This document shows positions 16,558 to 35,591 of a stretch of 64,000 bases of DNA, piece by piece. The position numbers were made by a program, and so were the translations under genes. This stretch comes from Vallitalea sp. (GTDB lineage: Bacteria > Bacillota > Clostridia > Lachnospirales > Vallitaleaceae). How positions within the stretch are numbered: the stretch's first letter is position 1; every line of letters starts with the position of its first letter. The stretch lies in the NCBI GenBank assembly GCA_025210235.1, contig JAOASG010000034.1, positions 63,922 to 127,921 of the forward strand, written 5' to 3'. The notes beneath the pieces are model-generated. The model searched no databases. It was not told where the DNA came from and saw only the letters and a list, made by a program, of their open reading frames with translations.

Positions 16558-16567
16558 ATAAGTAACT

Positions 16568-16718
16568 CAAACTTCGCACTTCATAAATTTCTGTGAAGTA
16601 AACTAAATTAAGGATTTCATCAACAATAAAAATACAGATGATCCTACGTTTTTTATTGTTGATGATAAACTCATAAGCCTATATTTTGCTGAACTTAAAG
16701 TCAAAGTGCGAAGTTTGA
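16568..16718 (+). repeat. 151-bp element bounded by perfect 14-bp terminal inverted repeats (TCAAACTTCGCACT / AGTGCGAAGTTTGA), with internal hairpins, in the glmM-glmS spacer
   Basis: TIRs at 16568-16581 and 16705-16718. Nested palindromes ACTTCATAAATTTCTGTGAAGT and CATCAACAATAAAAA…TTTTTATTGTTGATG. A shortened inverted copy lies at 32621-32683. Confidence 0.6.
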
Positions 16719-16761
16719 TTAAGAGAATAAAAGTATAAATAAGTATTAGGAGGACATTAGT

Positions 16762-18594
16762 GTGTGTGGTATAGTTGGATATATAGGTAATAAAGAAGCG
16801 GCACCTATTTTAATTAATGGGTTAAAAAGTTTAGAATATAGAGGATATGATTCTGCAGGAATCTCTATATATGACAATAAGATAAATTCAGTAAAAACAA
16901 AAGGAAGATTAATTAATTTAGAAGAGCGTTTAAGTAATAACCAGTTAAATGGAACTATTGGGATAGGTCATACTCGTTGGGCTACTCATGGAGAACCTTC
17001 AGATATTAATTCACATCCTCATATGAATAGTACTAGTACGATATCATTGGTTCATAATGGAATTATTGAAAACTACATGACAATAAAAGAAAAATTACAG
17101 TTAAAGGGACAAGAGTTTGTATCTGAAACTGATACAGAAGTAGCAGTTCAGTTGATAGATTATTATTATAAAAAGAATAATAATTTATTAGATTCTGTTT
17201 TAAAAGCTATGGAAAAAATTGAAGGCTCTTATGCTTTTGGAGTAATATGTAATGATGAACCTGATAAAATAATTGCAGTTAGAAAAGATAGTCCATTAAT
17301 AATTGGAATTGGTAAAGGGGAAAATTATATAGCATCTGATATTCCTGCTATTTTAGAACATACAAGAGACGTATATCTATTAGAAGATAAAGAAATTGCA
17401 ATTGTAACAAAAGATAATGTTAAAATAATAGATACTGATAAAAATGAAGTAAAAAGAGATATTTATAATGTTACTTGGGATATTAAAGCTGCTAGAAAAG
17501 ATGGATATGAACATTTTATGTTAAAAGAAATTTTTGAACAACCAAAAGTTGTAAAAGATACTTTATCCCCAAGATTGCCTCTTGATATTGATGATATAGT
17601 TCTTGATGATATTAATTTATCCAAAGAGGTTATTAAAAAGATAAATAAAATATATATAGTAGCTTGTGGTACAGCTTCATATACTGGTTTAGTAGGTAAG
17701 TATTTAATTGAAAGAGTAGCTAGAATACCTGTAGTTGCAGAGGTAGCATCGGAATTTCGATATAGAGAACCTATAATTGATGAAAATACTTTAATGATTG
17801 TTGTTTCACAATCAGGTGAAACAGCGGATACTCTTGCAGCACTTCGTCTTGCAAAGAAAGCGGGAGCATATGTAATTGGGATTGTTAATGTAGTGGGGTC
17901 TACAATATCAAGAATTGCAGATGATGTTTTGTATACTTGGGCAGGTCCAGAAATAGCAGTAGCGTCAACTAAAGCATATTCAGCTCAATTATGTGCTATG
18001 TATCTACTCTCAATAAAGATAGCTATGGAATTTGGAAATATTTCAAAAGAAGAATTTTTACTTCTTAGAGAAGAGTTATATACTTTACCTGATAAGGTAT
18101 CTAAAATATTAGAGCAAGCAGATACTATTAAAAAATTAGCTAATAAATACATTAACTCTAAAAATGTATTTTATATTGGTAGAGGTCTTGACTATGCAGT
18201 ATCAATGGAAGGTGCTCTTAAATTAAAAGAGATTGCTTACCTTCATGCAGAACCTTATGCAGCTGGTGAGTTAAAACATGGTCCAATTGCACTTATTGAA
18301 GATAATTCACTTTTAGTTGCTCTTACAGGTCATGAAGAGCTTTTTGATAAGACAGTTAGTAATATAAAAGAAGTTAAAGCTAGAGGTGCTAAAGTGTTAG
18401 CTATTGCTTTAGAAGGTAATACAGAGATAAGTAAGATTGCTAATGATGTAATTTATGTACCAAGAACTAACTGGATGTTTACATCATTACTTGAAAACAT
18501 TCCACAACAAATATTTGCTTATTATATTTCAGTTGGACTGGGTAATGATGTTGATAAGCCAAGGAATTTGGCTAAGAGTGTGACTGTTGAGTAG
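16762..18594 (+). CDS. glmS: glutamine--fructose-6-phosphate aminotransferase (isomerising)
   Basis: 610 aa with GTG start, Cys1 (MCGIVGY), an Ntn amidotransferase domain and two SIS domains. An AGGAGG RBS is present. Confidence 0.93.
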   Translation: MCGIVGYIGNKEAAPILINGLKSLEYRGYDSAGISIYDNKINSVKTKGRLINLEERLSNNQLNGTIGIGHTRWATHGEPSDINSHPHMNSTSTISLVHNGIIENYMTIKEKLQLKGQEFVSETDTEVAVQLIDYYYKKNNNLLDSVLKAMEKIEGSYAFGVICNDEPDKIIAVRKDSPLIIGIGKGENYIASDIPAILEHTRDVYLLEDKEIAIVTKDNVKIIDTDKNEVKRDIYNVTWDIKAARKDGYEHFMLKEIFEQPKVVKDTLSPRLPLDIDDIVLDDINLSKEVIKKINKIYIVACGTASYTGLVGKYLIERVARIPVVAEVASEFRYREPIIDENTLMIVVSQSGETADTLAALRLAKKAGAYVIGIVNVVGSTISRIADDVLYTWAGPEIAVASTKAYSAQLCAMYLLSIKIAMEFGNISKEEFLLLREELYTLPDKVSKILEQADTIKKLANKYINSKNVFYIGRGLDYAVSMEGALKLKEIAYLHAEPYAAGELKHGPIALIEDNSLLVALTGHEELFDKTVSNIKEVKARGAKVLAIALEGNTEISKIANDVIYVPRTNWMFTSLLENIPQQIFAYYISVGLGNDVDKPRNLAKSVTVE

Positions 18595-18671
18595 TGAATT
18601 TTGGTTAAATAATATATATTGTAGACTTACAACAAAGTTGTTAAATAAACAATAAAGTTGTTAAATTAGTA

Positions 18672-19179: not shown

Positions 19180-21093
19180 ATGTCAAGAAAATTGATTGAA
19201 AATATAATTCCTATTAAAGAATTAAGTGAATTAGCGAAAAAAGAAGGAAACAGTAAAAAACCTGTATATAGAATTCATAAATGGTGGGCTAGAAGATTAG
19301 GCTGTATAGTTAGAGCGCTCTATATTGCATCAGAATTACATTACGATGCTACAGATGAAGAATTTTGGGATAGATTTTACTCAAAAAATACAAGTGACTT
19401 GACAGTTTTAGATCCATTTATGGGTGGAGGGACTACGTTAGTAGAAGCTAAAAAAATGGGTATGAAAACAATAGGTGTTGATGTTGACCCACTTGCATGT
19501 TTTATTACGAAAAAGGAATTAGAAGATTGTAATTTGGATAGGATAAAAAAACAATATGAAATAATAGAAAAAAATATAGCTGAAAAGATTTTGAAACTAT
19601 ATACAACACGAATAGATGATAAGGAATATGAGATAATAAACGTCTTTTGGGTTTATGAAATTGATTGCCCAGAATGTAATTCTAAGGTTAGAACACACCC
19701 TCATTATAAATTATATTATAATAAAGAACAACAATATGTATTTTGTTCAGAGTGTGGAGAAGTAGATGTTATTGATATTAGCAAAGAAATTCATACGTGT
19801 AAATCCTGTGGATCAAAAACTAATATTGATAATGGTACCTACAAAAGAGGTAAGTGTAAATGTAAAATATGTAATACAGATTTTTTATTAAGAGATAATG
19901 TTAAAGGTAATAGAAACCTTCGATTATTTGCTTTAGAATATTTAGATGGAGAAAAAAGACTATTTAAAAAAGCAGACTATCAGGATATCAAGAAATATAA
20001 TGAATTAGAAACATATGATTATGTCCAAATACCAAATGAAAAAATTCCAAATGAAGCTAGAAAAGATATGAGACCTATTAGCTATGGATATAATAATTAT
20101 GGAGAGTTATTTAATAAGAGGCAAAGAATTGCTTTATCAATAATTTATAATGAAATTAATAATATTAAAAACGCATCAATTAAAGAATGGTTTACTATAA
20201 CTTTTTCAGATGCATTAGCATGTAATAATATGTTATGCAATTATGCTTATGGATATAGAAAATTAACACCGCTATTTGGTATTCATGCATTTACTGTACC
20301 TGTTAGACCTGTTGAAAATAACGTTTGGGGAACTACATTTGGAAGAGGCTCATTCAAAAAAGTTTTTAATAAGACTATTAGAGCAAAAGAATACTGTCAA
20401 AATACATATGAATCTAAATATGAAAAGGGTAAGCATAAAAGGATATATACAGGAGAAAGTATAAAGGCAAAGGTGACTTCAAATCCTGTGACTTTTTATA
20501 AAGGGAAAAGGGATAGTTTAATATTAAATCGTAGTTCTGCTCAATTAAAAGCAGTAAGAGACAAAACAGTTGATATTATAATGACGGATCCTCCATATTA
20601 CGATAATCTAAACTATTCTGAACTTGCACATTTTTATTATCAGTGGATAAAAGAGGATATTTCTTATAAATGTGATGATTATATGGATAAATCTCTTCAT
20701 GTCAATGATTTAGTGGAGAACTATCATGAGTTATTTGTAGACCAATTAACAAAAGTATTTAAGCAGTGTTATAAGAAGCTAAAAGATGATGGTATTATGG
20801 TTTTTTCATATCATCATAACAAAGAAGAAGCTTGGCAGGCATTAGGTAAAGCGATATATACTGCAGACTTTAAAATAGTTAATGTGTTTCCTGTTTTATC
20901 AGAAGGTAATAGTGCATATCATTCATCTGAAGGAACTATAAAGTGGGATTCAATCTTAGTACTCAAAAAAGCAGATAATTGTAAGAACATAACTAAAAAG
21001 AACATAGAATATTGGAAGCGATATTTCAAAGATAATAATTTAGAATTAAAACAATGTGACATAAATAGTATTTTGCAGTCAATTAAAATATAA
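19180..21093 (+). CDS. DNA (N6-adenine/N4-cytosine) methyltransferase, split-motif DUF1156-like type with Zn-ribbon insert
   Basis: 637 aa. N-terminal KKPVYRIHKWWARRLG box. AdoMet motif I VLDPFMGGGTTLVEA at about aa 75-90. Four CxxC pairs (CPEC, CSEC, CKSC, CKIC) in the middle. Catalytic motif IV IMTDPPYYDN at about aa 465. Confidence 0.75.
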   Translation: MSRKLIENIIPIKELSELAKKEGNSKKPVYRIHKWWARRLGCIVRALYIASELHYDATDEEFWDRFYSKNTSDLTVLDPFMGGGTTLVEAKKMGMKTIGVDVDPLACFITKKELEDCNLDRIKKQYEIIEKNIAEKILKLYTTRIDDKEYEIINVFWVYEIDCPECNSKVRTHPHYKLYYNKEQQYVFCSECGEVDVIDISKEIHTCKSCGSKTNIDNGTYKRGKCKCKICNTDFLLRDNVKGNRNLRLFALEYLDGEKRLFKKADYQDIKKYNELETYDYVQIPNEKIPNEARKDMRPISYGYNNYGELFNKRQRIALSIIYNEINNIKNASIKEWFTITFSDALACNNMLCNYAYGYRKLTPLFGIHAFTVPVRPVENNVWGTTFGRGSFKKVFNKTIRAKEYCQNTYESKYEKGKHKRIYTGESIKAKVTSNPVTFYKGKRDSLILNRSSAQLKAVRDKTVDIIMTDPPYYDNLNYSELAHFYYQWIKEDISYKCDDYMDKSLHVNDLVENYHELFVDQLTKVFKQCYKKLKDDGIMVFSYHHNKEEAWQALGKAIYTADFKIVNVFPVLSEGNSAYHSSEGTIKWDSILVLKKADNCKNITKKNIEYWKRYFKDNNLELKQCDINSILQSIKI

Positions 21094-21203
21094 AAGATTG
21101 ATATATTTAATAGAAAAAATAACTAAAGATAACATTAGTTGTTTTTTTTTGTATTTTTGTGTAAAATAATATTAGAGTATAAAAAATTAGAAAGGAGCAC
21201 ATA

Positions 21204-24200
21204 ATGAAATACATAGTAGATAAAAGTGTATTTACTAGCTTGGCAAATAATGGATGTAAAAAATATGCAATAAATCTTCTTTCAAAAAAATGGCAAGAAA
21301 GTTTGAAACAATCCAAATGTCAGTGTGGTTCAAATAAAAAAATGATTGAATGTTGTGGAAAAAATAAGAGTATTAATGAAATATTTCATGATTATAATTA
21401 TGTTGAAGAAAAATTAAAAATAAAAATTCCTCACGTTGATAAAGCTCCATTAGCAGCTCATATAAGGCAAGGTGAATATGCTGAAATTAAAAAGATTGAG
21501 GAATTGTCATATTATTATAATATAGGAACTCAATTACTAAATATAAAAAAATCAGAATTAATCAAGCCTTTTTCTAGTTCTGGAGAATTAGATATAACAT
21601 TTAATAAAAATAATTCAGAGCGACTTGGTCGATTAATATTTAAAAGAAAGATAAAAGGTAATGACTTCAAAATTCCTAAAGTGGGAGAAATTTGTAGTAT
21701 TGAGTTGTTTGAAAAGATAATCAGTAATGATAAATATGATTTTTTGTTTCAATTTAAATTTAATGTTAATAAGTATTTTTTTGCCTCTATTATTGGAAAG
21801 ATTGATTTTGAATCTATTTATACAAAATTACCGGATGTAGAGTTTTCAAATTGTATGCCTGATTTAATTCGTATAGTTCGCAAGAATGATGAGAAATATT
21901 ACAATTATAAAGTATTGGATGCTAATATGAATTCCGTTAATTCTAATAACGATAAAATTAAAATCATGGTTTGTGATATAAAAAATTCTGATTTTAGTAA
22001 TAAGTTCTTTGTTGAGTTAGGTCTATATATGTTGGCACTAAATTCTTATATTTATGATAATAATTTAGAAGAAATGGTTGAAGTAGTATCAGAAGGATTA
22101 ATATATCCTGAACTAGAGAATGAGATTGAAGAAGAAAGATTACACAGAATTAAGAATAAGGGAAAAGAATCAATTGCTAAATGGAGAGTAGAATTTTCAT
22201 CAATTAGAGAAGAAATAATAAAAGTATTTAAAGAGAAAATACCTGAATTAATACATATGGTTGAGCAAGGCAAGAGAAAAGATTATACAGAAATTAAAAT
22301 AACGCCAATGTGTACAACATGTGATTACTATGGTGGCCAAAATTCTGCTGAACTTAAAAAATATATAAATAATAATTTAGGAAAAGAACATTTTACATAT
22401 TCAAATATCGAAGAATATCTTAATGATCCAGACAATAACTTCTGTAGATATTGTGTTAAAAATGAAGAAAATATTAATTTGCTTCCGGATATTAATACTG
22501 GTGAAAAAAACACATTAATCAGTAATTCTATTTACAAAATTCGTGATTTAAAAAAAGCGATTCAAATAGATAATGGTATTTTTGATGAGAATATATCTCT
22601 AAAATCCGATAAAAAAATAATTGACATGGGATTAACCCTAAGAGAAAAACAGGAAAATTATACATTGCTAAATAAAAGAACAATAAATTTGCCTAAATTC
22701 TGTAATTTAAAGATATTTATAGATATTCAAAAAAGCTCCAAGGACCAAACGCTATCATTTGCATATAGTATTAATACTATTTATACTGATAAAGAAGGGA
22801 ATAAAATCAATGAAGGAGGATTGCTAAATCCCAAATTATCTATATCATTAATTGATGAATATTCGTTTAGAAATGATATTAAAGAATATCTAGAGTTTTT
22901 ATTTGACATAAATGATGTTTTGATAAACTTTGAAGATGTTGAAAATAAGTATGGTCAGCTAACATATTCATTAATATACTGGGGTCAATCTACTTATGAT
23001 CATATGAAGAAATTATTTCTTGTGATATTTCCTTATCTTAAACGTGATGGAAAAGGAATTGAAGAAATATATATATCTAGTAATGATACAACAATAGAAA
23101 ATAAAAAAAGGAAAATTAAACAGTTAAAAGAAAGGTTTTATACTTTGTTTGCACCTGAAGATGAATTGCAAGATTATCAGATTGTTGAAAAAAGTCCTTT
23201 TTTTGACATGAAAAAAGCCGTTACAGATACTCTTGTAATGAATGCAGATATTAGTCTAACTTTAGAGCAAGTGAATAGTTTGTTATCAAATTATAATTAT
23301 AGTTTTGGATATCATAAACCTGATTCGGATAGCTTTAGTGGATATGTGTATGGGCAAATATGGAATGTTGATAAGACTGGAAAAGAGAAAGATAATTTTA
23401 AAAAAGATATACAAAAGATTATTGAGCAAAGATTAAAGGCAATGATGGGTATTTATATCCATCTATCAAAAAAAGGCTATTTATATGGAGATTCTCCAAC
23501 AATTATTCCTTTGAAAAATAAAAATCTTTTTGGAAACTTTGATATAGCTAATGATTTATATTTGTATCATAAATTAGATAATGCTCATGAGTTAATTGAG
23601 AAAGAAAAAATACATAATGAAGAAATATATAAGAAAAAGATATTGGGTAAGGCTCTTTTTCTAAAGGAAGAAATTATCGGAAATGAAAGAAGTAAAATCT
23701 TAGAAAAATATGATATACCTAATAATGACGAATTTGTTGTATATGAGATTGGTGATGAGTCTGTTGAAACTAAGCTAGATAAAAAGAGTTTATGCTTAAC
23801 CATGTATCCAGAAGAAAAGAATGATTTTATATTTAAGAAGTTTGTACCATTAAAATATAATAACGTTATTTACTATGATGATAAGAAATATCCGATAGAC
23901 TGGGGATATAAAAGGAATCAACGTACGTATAAAAAGGCATTAGAAGTCAAGATACACTTGTTTAAGCGTTTTAATAAGATTATCGTTTTACGAATACCAT
24001 CATTAACTAAAGAGTTAATGAAGATATTGGTGAATGAATATAATTTTGATTTTAGTAGAAATATTATTATTGAATGTTTTCATCATGATTTCTGGGATTC
24101 GGTATTGAAAAGAACGTTGAATAAATTAAAAACTAATAAGGATAAAAGGAAGATGTTAGAGGATTTTGATCTAACTAAAATAAATGACTATTCATCCCAA

Positions 24201-25673
24201 AATATACTTGATGCTTTTAATGAATATTATGATGGGGTAGATATACCATTAGATAATTCGCAAGTAGGAGCTATTATTAAATCTTTAAATTATAACTTAA
24301 CATTGTTATGGGGACCACCTGGTACAGGAAAGACGCATACACTTGTTAACCTACTAGTTGCTTATAATATGCTTAATGATAAGCCTAAGCAAGTATTAAT
24401 AATGTGTAATACATATGACGCATTTGACAATATTATTTCAAAGCTTAGCGAAAACAAGATATTAGATTTTGAAGATATAGAGATTATTAGGTTAAGGAGT
24501 AATTATAGAGCTTCTAAAAAATATGAGTTTAATCATCTTAATTATCTTGATATTGGAAGTGGTGAATATAAAGAGAAGTTAAATGAATTATCTAAAAAAA
24601 ATATAAAACTACAAATAATTGCAAGTACCCCTCAACAGATAGGCAAAGTATTTGGAAACAGGCCACTAAAGAGTGCATTTAATATGGATCTTATTATTGT
24701 CGATGAGGCCTCACAAATGGATGTAGGACACTTTACTCCTGCACTTTTAAAATATAGTAAAGGTACACAAATTGTTTTAGCAGGTGATGATAGACAATTA
24801 CCGCCAATTACCAAAGTAAACCTTGAAAATGCAAAAGAAAATTATTATGGTTCTATATTCAGCCACTACTTATTAATGTTAGGTGATAAACTAAGGGTAT
24901 CATTAAATAATAATAGAAGATCAAATAAGACAATTGTTAATTTCTCTAAATTTACTTTTGATTATGACGATGATTATAGGGCAGTATATGAAAATAGAAA
25001 GATTGGTTTTGATAAAGTAAATAAAAATGATGATGTTTATAGTAAAATTTTGAACCCGAACAACTCTATGGTTCTATTACATTATGATGATGGTAATGCA
25101 AATCAATTAAATAAATTTGAGGCTAAAGAGGTTGTAAATATAATAAGACATATTTGGGATAATGGATTATTAGATGATAACAATAATAGATATAATATTC
25201 AGGATTTCCTTAAAAAAGGTATTGGTGTTGTTGTTCCACATACTGCACAAAGAAGGCATATACAAGATTTGTTAATACAATTATTTATCGATGAGTTACA
25301 TTTGGATAAAGATATAGATAAAGAAATTTTAGCGGATAATATTATATCAAGTGTAGATACGGTTGAACGATATCAAGGTCAGGAAAGAGATATAATGATT
25401 TGTAGCTATGTTCTTGGAGATTTAGATGTAATCAATCAAGAAGAAGATTTTATCTATAGCCCAAATAGATTAAATGTAATGATTTCTAGAGCTAAGGCAA
25501 AAGCAATTATTCTAGCATCAAATGAACTTATCCTAAATATAAGTAATAATTTAGAGATTATAGATGCTCAAAAATCACTAAAAGAACTGTTAAATTATTG
25601 TAATGATGAAATACATAAGATTGGTGAAGGAGAATGGAAAAACAAAAATGGAGTAATTAGAATAAAAAAATAG
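21204..25673 (+). CDS. giant nuclease-helicase: SEC-C Zn motif + RecB/Cas4-like PD-(D/E)XK nuclease with Cys cluster + Upf1/Dna2-like SF1 helicase
   Basis: 1489 aa. N-terminal CQCGSNKKMIECCG (SEC-C-like). MVCDIKNSD and ELGLYMLAL resemble the RecB-family DxK and QxxxY motifs. CTTCDYYGG and NFCRYC form an Fe-S-type Cys cluster. C-terminal motifs: I GPPGTGKT, II IIVDEASQ, III LAGDDRQLPP, and VI-like RYQGQERD / NRLNVMISRA. Confidence 0.7.
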   Translation: MKYIVDKSVFTSLANNGCKKYAINLLSKKWQESLKQSKCQCGSNKKMIECCGKNKSINEIFHDYNYVEEKLKIKIPHVDKAPLAAHIRQGEYAEIKKIEELSYYYNIGTQLLNIKKSELIKPFSSSGELDITFNKNNSERLGRLIFKRKIKGNDFKIPKVGEICSIELFEKIISNDKYDFLFQFKFNVNKYFFASIIGKIDFESIYTKLPDVEFSNCMPDLIRIVRKNDEKYYNYKVLDANMNSVNSNNDKIKIMVCDIKNSDFSNKFFVELGLYMLALNSYIYDNNLEEMVEVVSEGLIYPELENEIEEERLHRIKNKGKESIAKWRVEFSSIREEIIKVFKEKIPELIHMVEQGKRKDYTEIKITPMCTTCDYYGGQNSAELKKYINNNLGKEHFTYSNIEEYLNDPDNNFCRYCVKNEENINLLPDINTGEKNTLISNSIYKIRDLKKAIQIDNGIFDENISLKSDKKIIDMGLTLREKQENYTLLNKRTINLPKFCNLKIFIDIQKSSKDQTLSFAYSINTIYTDKEGNKINEGGLLNPKLSISLIDEYSFRNDIKEYLEFLFDINDVLINFEDVENKYGQLTYSLIYWGQSTYDHMKKLFLVIFPYLKRDGKGIEEIYISSNDTTIENKKRKIKQLKERFYTLFAPEDELQDYQIVEKSPFFDMKKAVTDTLVMNADISLTLEQVNSLLSNYNYSFGYHKPDSDSFSGYVYGQIWNVDKTGKEKDNFKKDIQKIIEQRLKAMMGIYIHLSKKGYLYGDSPTIIPLKNKNLFGNFDIANDLYLYHKLDNAHELIEKEKIHNEEIYKKKILGKALFLKEEIIGNERSKILEKYDIPNNDEFVVYEIGDESVETKLDKKSLCLTMYPEEKNDFIFKKFVPLKYNNVIYYDDKKYPIDWGYKRNQRTYKKALEVKIHLFKRFNKIIVLRIPSLTKELMKILVNEYNFDFSRNIIIECFHHDFWDSVLKRTLNKLKTNKDKRKMLEDFDLTKINDYSSQNILDAFNEYYDGVDIPLDNSQVGAIIKSLNYNLTLLWGPPGTGKTHTLVNLLVAYNMLNDKPKQVLIMCNTYDAFDNIISKLSENKILDFEDIEIIRLRSNYRASKKYEFNHLNYLDIGSGEYKEKLNELSKKNIKLQIIASTPQQIGKVFGNRPLKSAFNMDLIIVDEASQMDVGHFTPALLKYSKGTQIVLAGDDRQLPPITKVNLENAKENYYGSIFSHYLLMLGDKLRVSLNNNRRSNKTIVNFSKFTFDYDDDYRAVYENRKIGFDKVNKNDDVYSKILNPNNSMVLLHYDDGNANQLNKFEAKEVVNIIRHIWDNGLLDDNNNRYNIQDFLKKGIGVVVPHTAQRRHIQDLLIQLFIDELHLDKDIDKEILADNIISSVDTVERYQGQERDIMICSYVLGDLDVINQEEDFIYSPNRLNVMISRAKAKAIILASNELILNISNNLEIIDAQKSLKELLNYCNDEIHKIGEGEWKNKNGVIRIKK

Positions 25674-25818: not shown

Positions 25819-26748
25819 ATGGCAAATATATATTATGTAAAAGTCAATATAAATTCAGAAATTTATAATGTCTATAAAGGTTATGCGTCTATAAGCAATA
25901 TAATGGATGAGGTATTTGAAAAAATTAATGATGAAGTGGATTATGTTCATACTGTGGTTGGACATAATAAGAAAAATCAAAGGTTTGAAAAAGAGGATAT
26001 ATATAGCTTTTCAGAATTACAAAAATTGAAAGATGATGGTAAAGAGTATATCATAGGTAAAATTAATAGGAGGTATCCTATTTTTACAGAAGAATTTGAT
26101 GAAGAAACAAGAAAATCTAAGCCAATTGTAATTGATAATAATTCTATCAGTATTCAATTCTATTTTGATTTGAAATCAGAGATTATAACATTTTGCAAGA
26201 GAAATAAATTTGGCGAAAAGCAGTTTGCACTAGGATTTGAAGGCTTATTAAATGAAATTATGAGAACACAAGATTTTACCATTTTTTTGATTAAAGATCC
26301 TTTCAGTATAGAAGAAAATTTAAAACTTGCTCATAAAATAGTAAAATTAAAAACTATTACTGTAGCCCCAAACGCTAATGAAGAGGAATTAGCTGAGTTA
26401 TATGATGTAGATGTAAAAGATATGGAAACCGCAAATATACATAGAAAAACAAGTATTTTTGAGAGTTCAGATAAAAATAAAGGATTAAATATTAACTCTA
26501 AACTTATAAAAAGTAGTTTGCATCTTAATAAAGCGTATAAAAACTTTCAACGGGGGTATGGCAAACTTGAATTTGATGCCATATCTGAAGAAGGTTCTGA
26601 ATACCATTATGATTCAGATGAAAATTCTCCATTTATGACACACATTAATGATGATTTGAAAAATAATAAAGAGTATTTTATGAAAGAAAGTAAAATAGGT
26701 ATACAAAGAATTATAACTAAAGAAATAATTGAAGCATATGTAAAATAG
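25819..26748 (+). CDS. hypothetical protein (309 aa), co-oriented with the MTase/helicase pair
   Basis: ORF with an RBS (AAAGGGTGAG). No recognisable domain. The C-terminal half is acidic. Confidence 0.5.
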   Translation: MANIYYVKVNINSEIYNVYKGYASISNIMDEVFEKINDEVDYVHTVVGHNKKNQRFEKEDIYSFSELQKLKDDGKEYIIGKINRRYPIFTEEFDEETRKSKPIVIDNNSISIQFYFDLKSEIITFCKRNKFGEKQFALGFEGLLNEIMRTQDFTIFLIKDPFSIEENLKLAHKIVKLKTITVAPNANEEELAELYDVDVKDMETANIHRKTSIFESSDKNKGLNINSKLIKSSLHLNKAYKNFQRGYGKLEFDAISEEGSEYHYDSDENSPFMTHINDDLKNNKEYFMKESKIGIQRIITKEIIEAYVK

Positions 26749-26765: not shown

Positions 26766-27518
26766 ATGAAAAATGACCACTTAGGATTTAAAGCATTATT
26801 TAATGAATTATATGGTAAAAGTAAAAATCCATTGTTTAAATTTAGCTCATTTGAATGTTATTTTTCTATTATAATTTCAATGATTATATCTTCCTTAGGA
26901 TACTTTATTTATCAAGTTAATGGGATCCAAAATTTTACATCAATTATCAAAAATGTAATTTTAGGATTTGGATTTTCATTAATTGGTCTATTAGGATTTA
27001 TTATAACAGGTTTATCTATCATGATAAGTACTTTTGATAATAAATCTATTGATACAATACGCAAATCAGGTAGATTAATTAGACTAAAATCTATATTATT
27101 TAGTTTCTATTTTATTGGTTTAGTTATAGGAGTTGAAGTATTATTTTCATTTATATTATTTTTTATAGTTTCAATTGATATATCATTTAATATGACTTTT
27201 TACTGGATATCCTGTTTATTATATACTTACGTTGCTAGCTTTGTCTTATTATATTCTGTTTCATTACTAGGAACTTGTTTCCATATGTTTTTTATAAAAT
27301 TTGGTTATCAAGAAAGTAGTAAAAATACATTGCAGCAAGAAATTAATTTTTTACATCTTAAAGTCGATGCTTTATCAAAGATTTTATATGGTAATGATAT
27401 ATATGAATATGATCAATTTATTGAATGCCTAGAGCAAATTATAAATGATGAGTATCCCGAATGTAAAGAGGAGTTATTTAAAAGAATTAATGAATATTAT
27501 AATTTAAAGATTGGATAA
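26766..27518 (+). CDS. integral membrane protein (4-5 TM) with cytoplasmic coiled-coil C-terminus
   Basis: 250 aa, starting 18 bp after the previous gene. Hydrophobic segments (FSIIISMIISSLGYFIY, ILGFGFSLIGLLGFIITGL and others) precede a soluble tail. Confidence 0.5.
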   Translation: MKNDHLGFKALFNELYGKSKNPLFKFSSFECYFSIIISMIISSLGYFIYQVNGIQNFTSIIKNVILGFGFSLIGLLGFIITGLSIMISTFDNKSIDTIRKSGRLIRLKSILFSFYFIGLVIGVEVLFSFILFFIVSIDISFNMTFYWISCLLYTYVASFVLLYSVSLLGTCFHMFFIKFGYQESSKNTLQQEINFLHLKVDALSKILYGNDIYEYDQFIECLEQIINDEYPECKEELFKRINEYYNLKIG

Positions 27519-33340: not shown

Positions 33341-34612
33341 ATGACTAGCTTTAATGAGTTAATAAAAAATTATGAAAAGATAAGAGATTATTTAAGAGAC
33401 TTTCATATATATGGTTATAAATGTCGTAATGATTTTGATTCAAAAAGTGGTAGAAGTTATGATAATGAGAGAAGAAGAATTGAAAATTATTTGTCAGGAT
33501 ATATAGGACATGAAAATTCAATAAGAGGTAAAAAGTTATTTATAACAGCGGATACTATTGATTTAGAGGAAAATCCACTTTTTGTAACTTGGATGACAAA
33601 AACTTTTACTAAGAATGATGTAATGTTACATTTTATTATATTGGATATTCTAAATATTAATGATGGAATAACATTAAATGAGATTATAGATATTATAGTT
33701 AATGAATATCTAAGTAGATTTGAAGAGATTAAGATACCAGATAATATGACTATAAGAAATAAACTGAAAGAGCTTGAAAATATAGGATTTCTACATAGTA
33801 TTAAAAATGGTAAAGCATTACATTACTATATTAGTAAACAAGAAATTTATTTATTATCAAGAGAAATAATTAATAAACTCCTTCATACATGTGGTTATTA
33901 TCAAAATGTTTTCCCAGCTGGAGTTCTAGGAAATTTTATACGGTATAGAGTAGATAGTTCTATTGTTAAAGAACCTTTATTCTCATTTCGTCATATTTAC
34001 TTAGCTCACACATTAGATGATGAGATTTTGCTTAATATTCTAATAGCTATTGGTGAACATAGAAATATTGAGTTTAAACATGCTAATAAAAGAAATAGTA
34101 AAGTAAAAATAAGAGCTTTACCTTTAAAAATATTAGATAATGTTAGTAGTGGTAGAAGGTATCTTGCGGCTTATGATAATAAGAATAATTGTTTCGTAAC
34201 ATATAGAATAGATAACATAAAAGAAGTCATAGTTAAGGATATATGTGATGGTTATGATGAGTATGTAAAAAACCTAGTAGAGATTTTAAACAAAAGTTGG
34301 GGCGTTACTATATCTAATAAAAAAAATTTAGAAAAACTAGAAGTAACTTTGATTATTAATAATAATGAAGATTACATATTAAAAAGAATTAATAGAGAAG
34401 GTAAACATGGTACTATAGAGAAGATTGGAGAAAATACTTATCTATATACAATTGAAGTTATTGATTCTAATGAAATGGTACCTTGGCTTAGGACATTAAT
34501 AGGGAGAATAATTTCGTTTAAGTGTACTAATAAAATAGTAGAAGAAAAATTTATAAGAGATATTGATGTAATGTATGAAATGTATAGGGGGGTAGGGCAT
34601 GAACCTTTTTAG
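33341..34612 (+). CDS. WYL-domain transcriptional regulator (wHTH + WYL)
   Basis: 423 aa. HTH-like region (…ITLNEIIDIIVNEYLSRFEEI…NKLKELENIGFLHS…). WYL-domain pattern IKIRALPLKILDNVSSGRRYLAAYDNKNNCFVTYRIDNIKEV. Confidence 0.55.
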   Translation: MTSFNELIKNYEKIRDYLRDFHIYGYKCRNDFDSKSGRSYDNERRRIENYLSGYIGHENSIRGKKLFITADTIDLEENPLFVTWMTKTFTKNDVMLHFIILDILNINDGITLNEIIDIIVNEYLSRFEEIKIPDNMTIRNKLKELENIGFLHSIKNGKALHYYISKQEIYLLSREIINKLLHTCGYYQNVFPAGVLGNFIRYRVDSSIVKEPLFSFRHIYLAHTLDDEILLNILIAIGEHRNIEFKHANKRNSKVKIRALPLKILDNVSSGRRYLAAYDNKNNCFVTYRIDNIKEVIVKDICDGYDEYVKNLVEILNKSWGVTISNKKNLEKLEVTLIINNNEDYILKRINREGKHGTIEKIGENTYLYTIEVIDSNEMVPWLRTLIGRIISFKCTNKIVEEKFIRDIDVMYEMYRGVGHEPF

Positions 34613-35591
34613 TGAAGTATATGGAAAGTATTATCAATTGATAAGCCAGATATTAAATGAAGCTCAAAATAAATCTATTTCAATAGAATATATATATGAA
34701 ATAATAAGAGAGCAAGGTTTTGAAGATACTCTTATAACTCTAGCGCCTAGAATTATAAATAATGATAAAGATAGTTATAATCTATTAAATAGAAATTCAA
34801 AAGGTTATCAATCTATATTAAGTAAAGAACCTTCGGTTTTATTAACTACACTAGAATTAAGATGGATAAAAACATTACTTATGGATAAGCGAATACAATT
34901 GTTTTTAAATGAAGAGGAATTAATGTTATTAAAGGAACAATTGATAGATGTAAAGGAATTGTTTGACGAAGATACAATAGTGTACATAGGACAAGCAAAT
35001 GATGGAGATCCATATGATGATATTAATTACATTAAATATTTTAGACAACTATTATATGCTGTAAATAATAAGAAATGTTTAAATATAACATACTATAATT
35101 CAGAGGGTATTAGAAGATGTGCTACTTACGCAGGATATAGAATAGAATACTCAGTAAAAGATGATAAATTTCGTTTGAACGCAGTTCTTATTAAGAGGGG
35201 TAAAATAATTTATCATAGTAAGATTAATGTGGCGAGAATAATTAATGCCCAGATTATAGAATCAGCTAATTATCCATCAGATATATCTGAATACATATAT
35301 GCTCATAAAATGCCCGAACCAATAGAAGTCATAGTAAATAATGAAAGAAATGGTTTTGAACGAGTCTTTGTCCATCTTTCAAACTATGAAAGAAATGCAG
35401 AATATCATGAAGAAACAAATACTTGCAAAGTTAAAATATATTACTATGATTTTGATGAAACAGAACTATTAATACAGCTTTTATCATATGGACCTATTCT
35501 AAAAGTGGTGGGACCAGAAGAATTTAAGAAAAAAGTAGTAGATAGGATTGATAGACAGAAGAAACTATGGAGAACATATTGTTCCTCATAG
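34599..35591 (+). CDS. WYL-domain protein, paralogous partner
   Basis: 330 aa, overlapping the previous gene by 14 bp. WYL-like stretch CLNITYYNSEGIRRCATYAGYRIEYSVKDDKFRLNAVLI…NVARIINAQI. Confidence 0.5.
   Translation: MNLFSEVYGKYYQLISQILNEAQNKSISIEYIYEIIREQGFEDTLITLAPRIINNDKDSYNLLNRNSKGYQSILSKEPSVLLTTLELRWIKTLLMDKRIQLFLNEEELMLLKEQLIDVKELFDEDTIVYIGQANDGDPYDDINYIKYFRQLLYAVNNKKCLNITYYNSEGIRRCATYAGYRIEYSVKDDKFRLNAVLIKRGKIIYHSKINVARIINAQIIESANYPSDISEYIYAHKMPEPIEVIVNNERNGFERVFVHLSNYERNAEYHEETNTCKVKIYYYDFDETELLIQLLSYGPILKVVGPEEFKKKVVDRIDRQKKLWRTYCSS

Follow-up and report, generated by a model that had tools for sequence, protein, structure and literature searches.

A short-form DUF1156 DNA methyltransferase and a Dna2/Bad-like nuclease-helicase beside glmS: a candidate two-gene restriction–modification-like module linked to Tn7-like elements

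The window analysed here, a 64,000-nt stretch of a Vallitalea sp. contig, contains a cdaA-cdaR-glmM-glmS block whose last gene, glmS (16762..18594, +; Pfam GATase_6/7 and SIS), is followed by a vestigial Tn7-like right end (18620..18666, +). Beyond this lie an ORF for a short-form DUF1156/COG1743 DNA methyltransferase (19180..21093, +; 637 aa), with N6-methyladenine (m6A) as its predicted product, and, as the next gene, an ORF for a Dna2/Bad-like nuclease-helicase (21204..25673, +; 1489 aa), below called the partner. The two are separated by 110 nt and together occupy 6.5 kb.

The methylase ORF has an ATG start with a ribosome-binding site, GGGTGAG, 7 nt upstream. Its N-terminal helical box (19207..19332, +; aa 10-51, with HKWWARR and with YRIHKWWARRLG from aa 30) matches Pfam PF06634 at 25.6 bits against a cutoff of 24; the resemblance to DUF1156, which an earlier note on this DNA had pointed out, is real. 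The AdoMet-binding motif I (DPFMGGG; 19405..19461, +; aa 76-94, VLDPFMGGGTTLVEAKKMG from aa 76) and the catalytic motif IV (IIMTDPPYYDN; 20575..20607, +; aa 466-476, DPPY at aa 470-473) lie where that note had placed them in the 637-aa ORF, and a two-stretch Pfam match to N6_N4_Mtase (49 bits) agrees with its reading of the protein as an amino-methyltransferase. We aligned 30 bacterial and archaeal homologues of 41-78% identity: D78, F80, G82, G83 and G84 of motif I, D101, and D470, P471, P472 and Y473 of motif IV were all invariant, and by entropy the HKWWARR box was among the most conserved blocks. Because they are invariant across the 30 homologues, these motif features are not due to chance. 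The motifs support an AdoMet-dependent amino-methyltransferase of the N6_N4_Mtase kind with a DUF1156 N-terminus. From the DPPY motif, the family name and the restriction–modification (R–M) contexts of relatives, we infer that the product is m6A and the substrate DNA.

In the AlphaFold2 (AF2) model (pLDDT 88, pTM 0.88), the chain ends ~40 aa past the last core strand. Comparison with profiles and chains showed that the core is circularly permuted relative to the beta-class DNA MTases; motif I, N-terminal here, matches the C-terminus of beta-class profiles, and the half with DPPY matches their N-terminus. The secondary structure of the model puts an insert of ~330 aa between core strands 2 and 3 (19522..20514, +; aa ~115-445), in the order long helix, beta-rich Zn-ribbon module, alpha/beta module. 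Its placement after strand 2 agrees with the published description of a target-recognition insert, and no solved structure aligned past the ~180-residue MTase core. The earlier note had called the separation of the two motifs unusually wide; this does not hold, as a catalytic-domain insert of ~330 aa is the norm of the DUF1156/COG1743 family.

The four CxxC pairs that had been noted in the insert are present as two Zn-ribbon-like CxxC...CxxC pairs (19666..19872, +; aa 163-231, with CxxC at aa 163, 189, 207 and 228), and all eight cysteines (C163, C166, C189, C192, C207, C210, C228 and C231) are invariant in the 30-homologue alignment, with variable loops between them. Pfam gives a weak match to Zn_Ribbon_TF at aa 163-196. 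The second ribbon (aa 196-240) is, its cysteines excepted, among the most variable stretches of the methylase, as would be expected of a specificity element, and it is plausible from these sequence features that the ribbons read the target DNA. Further along is a block (20215..20349, +; aa 346-390, NNMLC..YRKLTPLFGIH..RPVENNVWG..GRG) that is a hallmark of the family; its entropy is as low as that of the catalytic motifs, and the NCBIfam DUF1156_antiphage match spans it. For the most part, however, the insert shows high conservation and little variability; this is not usual in a specificity domain and counts against the explanation we prefer.

Taken by itself the methylase is an ordinary, already annotated protein: a short form of DUF1156/COG1743 that fits normally into this known family of DNA adenine methylases with zinc ribbons, for which a target-recognition insert behind core strand 2 has already been described in print. 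Among 8000 candidates scored there were at least 2188 relatives, and most of the best family matches are 660-730 aa long with the same layout. Homologues are named in their sources 'Adenine-specific DNA methylase, contains a Zn-ribbon domain'. PADLOC gave partial matches to PglXI (aa 428-588, 96 bits), HmaB and DUF1156_MTase. The NCBIfam equivalog NF042963 (DUF1156_antiphage) matched in part (aa 284-609 to profile positions 440-717 of 960), with 108.8 bits against a curated cutoff of 1000. No named defence-system model in PADLOC 2.0 or NCBIfam 2026 covered either the methylase or the partner at family level.

The N-terminus of the partner is a Cas4/RecB-family PD-(D/E)xK nuclease (21204..22463, +) with a 1+3 cysteine 'iron-staple' (Fe-S-type) pattern (C18; C370, C373, C414) and candidate catalytic residues D220, D258-x-K260 and E271..Y275. 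Both the cysteine pattern and the D..DxK..ExxxY motifs are kept in an alignment of its homologues. The canonical iron-staple spacing is CxxCx5C; in the partner, the third and fourth cysteines are far wider apart. An insertion confined to the nearest clade in the alignment, CQCGSNKKMIECCG (21318..21359, +; aa 39-52), forms a SEC-C-like metal-binding motif, resembling the C-terminal motif of SecA; Pfam at a lax threshold gave no hits to the N-terminal and central parts, SEC-C and Cas4 models included. The central region, of about 500-550 aa (22641..24143, +), shows conservation from end to end among members of the family, and aa 480-980 have no relatives outside the family in Pfam, PADLOC or NCBIfam. 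The C-terminus is an SF1B (Upf1/Dna2-like) helicase (24243..25607, +; Pfam AAA_11/AAA_12) with intact motifs GPPGTGKT, DEASQ, GDxxQLPP and VERYQGQ, all invariant in the alignment. Its closest solved relatives are DNA2 (the best match), Upf1/Nam7, IGHMBP2 and Sen1.

The family is small. An exhaustive phmmer search with the N-terminal and central 980 aa returned 33 cluster representatives among 1.84 billion; a word-indexed search, run twice, found 9-10 true relatives and was swamped by low-complexity AT-rich sequence. In its fold and its 1+3 cysteines the nuclease matches the iron-staple nucleases (eukaryotic and archaeal Dna2, AddB and Cas4), although identity in the nuclease is only ~10-13% and the partner has an extra central domain of ~550 aa. 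Like Dna2, the partner combines this nuclease with an SF1B helicase in one protein; unlike that of Dna2, its gene is associated with an MTase and with mobile elements, not with replication genes. One Dna2-like protein (H22) is archaeal and of replication type, with no MTase nearby. Such Dna2-like proteins, which look like housekeeping enzymes and occur without a methylase, count against reading the pair as a defence module, as does the lack of a named defence model.

Methylase and partner are adjacent in every close relative examined; the earlier note had mentioned neither this partner nor the Tn7/glmS setting. The pair occurs in Caminicella, Listeria, Clostridium botulinum and Methanococcus (here in divergent orientation), and in metagenome-assembled genomes of Bacillota, Planctomycetota, Nitrospirota, Synergistota and Gammaproteobacteria. 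The partner is present with every MTase at least 48% identical to the methylase, the identities of the two proteins fall in parallel across loci, and some loci have the two genes overlapping or with 3 nt between them. Conversely, every member of the partner family whose locus was examined adjoins a DUF1156 MTase. The 110-nt gap of the window contains a hairpin with a U-run (21118..21150, +; fold -7.2 kcal/mol, z -2.3), followed by a -10-like box, TGTGTAAAAT, and then by an AAGGAG ribosome-binding site. Equivalent intergenic hairpins with other stem sequences occur in three of five relatives; the evidence from this hairpin is weak. Given this gap and its terminator-like hairpin, the two genes need not be co-transcribed here. 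A promoter scan was uninformative (68 sites against 62 expected in DNA of 27% GC). Two ORFs downstream of the pair (25819-26748 and 26766-27518) were considered as third components and rejected: they are not conserved beside it, show no relationship to the ORF that takes their place at the L087 locus and have no library match.

The 3' end of glmS is the attachment landmark (attTn7) of Tn7-like elements, which are known to carry defence cargo (PMC8649781). In the window, the right-end sequence TGTAGACTTACAACAAAGTTGTTAAAT starts 25 bp after the glmS stop and has the make-up of such an end, a terminal TG followed by repeated TnsB-type sites: a 13-nt site, AAAGTTGTTAAAT, is present at 18634 and again 20 bp further on, at 18654. 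The sequence and its placement match, on alignment, both ends of the intact element of the L006 locus, which is inserted 24 bp after glmS, and also the left end of the L087 element. The order glmS then module is shared with Caminicella and L006. Three relatives (L010, L006 and L087) carry the pair as cargo within Tn7-like transposons that have tnsABCDE, and in L087 the cargo consists of the pair, two small ORFs without known function (58 and 322 aa) and nothing else. In comparison with full Tn7-like transposons, the window retains the right end but lacks tns genes (tblastn with the L010 Tns proteins gave nothing below E = 0.3), and no inverted left end was found. Because of these absences, the element is a remnant that is no longer mobile. 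A composition profile gave no island signal.

We consider it probable that methylase and partner form a two-gene, R–M-like defence module derived from Tn7-like transposon cargo. The methylase would be the modification half: a stand-alone enzyme whose Rossmann-type core is broken after strand 2 by the ~330-aa insert, in which a conserved alpha/beta module accompanies two structural Zn ribbons. This insert is most likely what supplies DNA-sequence recognition. As the insert would read the target sequence, no S subunit would be needed; the earlier note had reported no specificity subunit nearby, and Pfam, PADLOC and NCBIfam found no HsdS-like gene among the neighbours. The other half would be the partner, in which a Cas4/Dna2-type nuclease with an Fe-S-type cysteine pattern is joined to a central domain without known function and a 5'-3' SF1B helicase. 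Its proposed action follows an analogy with Geobacillus stearothermophilus Bad (below): it would load onto DNA, move along it or unwind it, and cleave single strands, so that unmethylated DNA is destroyed whilst host DNA is guarded by the methylase. The module would have come in as Tn7-like cargo at the glmS attachment site, with later loss of the transposition genes. The antiphage function of the pair is our inference, and a coupling of the nuclease to methylation state is suggested by the same analogy.

The strongest alternative, which we nevertheless regard as unlikely, is that the two genes are unlinked neighbours: a solitary or type II-like methylase and, independent of it, a defence or repair enzyme that acts on DNA ends or junctions (cf. 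Nhi, AddAB, Dna2), the two simply sharing an island or transposon. The 110-nt gap, the terminator-like hairpin and a possible separate promoter would fit this, as would the existence of Dna2-like proteins without MTases and the activity of Bad in vitro without any MTase (PMC7430649). Members of the methylase family also have unrelated partners elsewhere: in nine relatives the MTase gene follows immediately after, and overlaps, a gene for an EcoO109I-like type II restriction endonuclease, and others sit with SNF2 and NOV_C genes. Against this, the pairing spans bacterial phyla and archaea and includes the overlapping or 3-nt-spaced genes; the two proteins diverge in parallel; the pair and two small ORFs are the entire cargo in L087; and the partner family is rare, with 33 representatives, yet all the loci examined are beside a DUF1156 MTase.

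There is very little chance that the methylase belongs to a known DUF1156 system (Hma, the DUF499-centred BREX-related systems or BREX type 3) whose other parts are elsewhere or lost. Its best PADLOC matches are indeed PglXI and HmaB, its best NCBIfam match is DUF1156_antiphage, and long-form relatives adjoin DUF499, SNF2 and PglZ genes. The DUF1156 MTases of these systems (HmaB, the BREX-related MTases and relatives of PglXI) share with it the DUF1156 box, the order motif I, insert after strand 2, DPPY, the Zn-ribbon module and the conserved insert block, and likewise associate with helicase-nuclease defence genes. However, the methylase is ~250-300 aa shorter than the DUF499-linked forms (637 versus 840-970 aa), without the C-terminal HTH-like triad and ~250-aa extension of the Hma and DUF499-linked MTases, and its NCBIfam score of 109 bits compares with a cutoff of 1000. 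Among the window ORFs at 9.7-35.6 kb there is no DUF499, SNF2 (or DUF3883), PglZ or BrxC gene; the BREX type 3 neighbours BrxC, PglZ, BrxHII and BrxA/B were not found around the methylase, and its close relatives consistently have the SF1B partner instead. That the methylase modifies RNA rather than DNA, as an m2G-type tRNA or rRNA enzyme of the Trm11/Trm14/RlmL kind, is similarly improbable. The EcoO109I-like neighbours of the nine relatives support a DNA substrate and a specificity of the methylase's own.

Type III enzymes combine a beta-class Mod with an SF2 Res that has a C-terminal PD-(D/E)xK nuclease; the pair does not have this composition, and its methylase differs from Mod in the permuted core. 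Compared with both type III and type I/ISP enzymes, the motor is an SF1B helicase and not an SF2 translocase, the nuclease is N-terminal and of the Fe-S Cas4/Dna2 type, and there is no HsdS. The likeness to these enzymes would lie in an MTase, the likely carrier of specificity, coupled to an ATP-dependent motor-nuclease, with m6A as the mark of self versus non-self. A type II system would have a stand-alone restriction endonuclease; Pfam, PADLOC and NCBIfam found none beside the methylase in the window.

The closest studied analogue of the partner, compared here by its published description, is Bad (WP_053413574), in which an Fe-S nuclease and an SF1B helicase are joined with a central domain without known function and which acts as a processive 5'-3' motor and ssDNA endonuclease (PMC7430649). 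Its gene is always beside an m6A MTase, which is reported to be of the type III Mod-like kind, and in 2020 its authors proposed that such enzymes make up a new restriction class (PMC7430649); we found no published test of this proposal. The partner has the same three parts, its nuclease being of the RecB family with an Fe-S-type cysteine pattern, and the locus, like that of Bad, has an adenine MTase as neighbour and is sporadic in Bacillota and methanogens. The sizes differ (1245 aa for Bad, 1489 aa for the partner), and phmmer with the N-terminal 980 aa of the partner returned no protein of Bad's length; in a plasmid collection, matches were to the helicase domain only.

We tentatively suggest that the pair is a distinct, unnamed class of ATP-dependent R–M system and the in vivo context of 'Bad-type' enzymes. 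In such a class, unmethylated DNA would be destroyed by a helicase-nuclease that truly unwinds it 5'-3', in place of an SF2 translocase; methylation state might be read by the methylase or by the partner's central orphan domain of ~550 aa; and Tn7-like transposons would carry the module to glmS sites. If true, this would add a mechanistically new type of motor to R–M biology and give a function to the large orphan domain.

The value of the locus is in the pairing and not in the methylase: with two genes, it is a clean and minimal candidate for a restriction-like system that has a Dna2-type helicase-nuclease at its base. The module is directly testable, since it is compact, mobilised by Tn7-like elements and present in cultivable hosts, its cultivable carriers being C. 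botulinum, Listeria monocytogenes, Methanococcus maripaludis and Caminicella. At one further locus (L086), the pair adjoins a Shedu gene.

The methylase gene at 19180-21093 (+), a genuine ORF of 637 aa with an ATG start and a GGGTGAG ribosome-binding site 7 nt upstream, precedes a gene at 21204-25673 (+) encoding a 1489-aa partner protein. The methylase itself belongs to a known, already annotated family with an ordinary architecture; what is new is that it forms a two-gene module together with a rare nuclease-helicase of Dna2/Bad-like type, and that Tn7-like elements carry this module. At family level, PADLOC 2.0 and NCBIfam (June 2026) have no model for it. The two genes are also adjacent in Caminicella sporogenes, Listeria monocytogenes and Clostridium botulinum, in MAGs of Bacillota, Phycisphaerae, Nitrospirota, Synergistaceae and Sedimenticola, and, in divergent orientation, in Methanococcus maripaludis. 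The partner was present at every locus with a methylase at least 48% identical to that of the window, and across loci the identities of the two proteins fall in parallel. The genes overlap or lie 3 nt apart in more distant clades, and are separated by ~70-125 nt in the window's clade. Four of the six spacers examined (the window, at 21118-21150; Caminicella; C. botulinum; and the metagenome scaffold L087) contain a hairpin and U-run with differing stem sequences, then a -10-like TGTAAAAT box (TGTGTAAAAT in the window), which hints weakly that the nuclease gene is transcribed separately. Such a terminator-like hairpin would suit two unlinked neighbours, as would the activity in vitro, independent of an MTase, of Bad, the Dna2-like helicase-nuclease of Geobacillus stearothermophilus; however, the pairing is both broad and tight, and we consider it unlikely that the genes are unlinked. 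An HD/dGTPase-like gene also lies beside the pair in the C. botulinum and Listeria loci.

The C-terminal third of the partner is an Upf1/Dna2-like SF1B helicase (Pfam AAA_11/AAA_12) with all helicase motifs intact, and the nearest solved structures are DNA2, Nam7/Upf1, IGHMBP2 and Sen1. Comparison of the partner with nucleases gave Cas4 10.4, DNA2 10.0, AdnAB 8.0, Exo5 7.9 and AddB 6.9; the nuclease site is intact and its cysteines are arranged in an Fe-S-type pattern. An insertion with a SEC-C-like CxCGSxKK...CCG motif of metal-binding type (CQCGSNKKMIECCG; aa 39-52, window 21318-21359) sits close to the first of these cysteines and is confined to the nearest homologue clade. Between the two domains, the central ~550 aa are kept within the family and have no detectable relatives. 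The family is rare, since the N-terminal 980 aa matched just 33 cluster representatives among 1.84 billion. In architecture, the closest studied analogue is Bad, which joins a RecB-family Fe-S nuclease to an SF1B helicase, with a domain of unknown function between them (PMC7430649). Bad is specific for ss/dsDNA junctions, translocates processively 5'-3' for > 4 kb and is an ssDNA endonuclease; its gene always lies beside that of an m6A methylase, with the motif GCCAT according to REBASE (PMC7430649). We found no later paper testing its authors' proposal of a new class of restriction enzyme.

As cargo of intact tnsABCDE elements (L006 318-19220 and 19440-20867; L010 22-8165; L087 1-15770), the pair comes right after tnsA-tnsB-tnsC-tnsD-tnsE in C. 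botulinum (L010), in L087 and in a MAG of Bacillota (L006). The L006 element begins 24 bp past the glmS stop codon and has inverted ends (TGAGGAAT.../...ATTCCTCA) with repeated AAAAAGTTGTAAAAT sites. In L087, three sites of this kind mark the left end, directly after a cargo in which the methylase and partner genes are accompanied by a small ORF before them and another ORF behind. Two Tn7-like elements stand in tandem after glmS in L006. In the window, TGTAGACTTACAACAAAGTTGTTAAAT, with the terminal TGTAGAC..., lies 25 bp past the glmS stop, and a second AAAGTTGTTAAAT site follows 20 bp on; this stretch (18620-18666) aligns with the L006 and L087 ends. Neither tns genes nor an inverted left end were found in the window. 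We read the locus as what is left of a Tn7-like element that inserted at the glmS site and decayed, with 18620-18666 as its right end. In Caminicella the pair also follows glmS, with an IS transposase between, and at a further locus (L086) it adjoins a Shedu gene; Tn7-like cargo is rich in defence systems (PMC8649781). The glmS leader (16558-16761) and the region 10000-34000 gave no glmS ribozyme and no other Rfam family at gathering score or E<=1. This absence is unexpected for a Bacillota glmS gene.

The motifs quoted in the earlier note were each found in the methylase at the place given there: YRIHKWWARRLG starts at aa 30 and motif I (VLDPFMGGG) at aa 76, the CxxC pairs lie at aa 163, 189, 207 and 228, and TDPPY spans aa 469-473. 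They are under selection: among 30 homologues (41-78% identity, Bacillota to Thermoplasmata and Methanosarcinales), F80/G82-84, D101, D470-Y473 and all eight cysteines are invariant. The guess of a DUF1156 protein was correct, and the proposed Pfam search matched both DUF1156 (25.6 bits, cutoff 24) and N6_N4_Mtase (49 bits, two stretches), with a weak Zn-ribbon match. An identical database entry is already named "DNA methyltransferase [Vallitalea sp.]", and one homologue bears the COG1743 name, "Adenine-specific DNA methylase, contains a Zn-ribbon domain". There are at least 2188 relatives among 8000 candidates scored, the best mostly of 660-730 aa with the same layout. That the protein is instead an RNA methylase, a view drawing on a fold ranking, two borderline Pfam hits and nothing else, is highly improbable. 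On the antisense strand within the methylase gene, 20678-20705 (-) holds a perfect 12/12 sigma-70 consensus (TTGACA, 16 nt, TATAAT), a match that AT-rich DNA could produce by chance but that could also be an antisense promoter.

The motif I region matches the C-terminal end of beta-class MTase profiles and chains (e.g. MboIIA, CcrM) and the DPPY half their N-terminal end; the core is thus circularly permuted relative to that class. A confident AlphaFold2 model built on the alignment (pLDDT 88, pTM 0.88) begins with strand 1, a helix and strand 2 (aa 75-101). An insert of ~330 aa follows (a long helix, a beta-rich module with the four CxxC pairs and an alpha/beta module), then strands 3 and 4 with DPPY (together aa 446-473) and the remaining Rossmann fold. 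Because this topology fits the "TRD-insert after core strand-2" published for DUF1156 and type 3 BREX methylases, the motif split that had seemed unusually wide is the family norm. Within the insert, aa 346-390 are as conserved as the catalytic motifs; aa 121-150, 196-240, 256-285 and 406-450 are variable, although aa 196-240, the second Zn ribbon, retains its cysteines. This pattern is compatible with ribbon loops that act in specificity, though no proof of it.

The DUF1156 methylases that have been described measure ~850-970 aa, and their operons also encode a DUF499 ATPase and an SNF2 helicase-nuclease (Hma/"BREX-related"). The window methylase lacks their C-terminal extension, reaches 109 bits against the NCBIfam DUF1156_antiphage cutoff of 1000, and has no DUF499, SNF2 or PglZ gene nearby; it falls outside these systems, and hardly any likelihood is left that it is a stray component of one. 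Clustering the neighbours at 80 loci fetched for methylase relatives gave at least four partner sets: long-form methylases with DUF499 and a PglZ-like gene; and short forms paired with an SNF2 helicase and NOV_C/DUF3883 nuclease, immediately following (with overlap) an EcoO109I-like type II endonuclease gene, or, as in the window, adjoining an SF1 helicase protein of ~1430-1540 aa. The endonuclease arrangement is good evidence for a DNA methylase that is self-sufficient and sequence-specific; in that clade (loci L017-L026, e.g. L018 1471-2196) the module takes the part of the methylase in a classical type II R-M system.

Read from sequence, the module has an intact amino-MTase active site, nuclease site and SF1B motor, a conserved pairing, and a mobile and defence context; our analysis classes it as a putative R-M-like defence system. 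The methylase would use its insert to read a motif and would place m6A there on host DNA, and the partner would unwind and cut DNA without the mark. To discriminate, the partner might form a complex with the methylase, as happens in type I and III systems, or might rely on its own orphan central domain.

Directly 3' of the partner, the ORFs at 25819-26748 (309 aa) and 26766-27518 (250 aa) had no Pfam, NCBIfam, PADLOC or PHROGs match and are not kept beside the pair in other genomes. At 33341-35591, a WYL-domain protein (423 aa) and an overlapping 330-aa ORF without a family match may be another regulator/defence pair.
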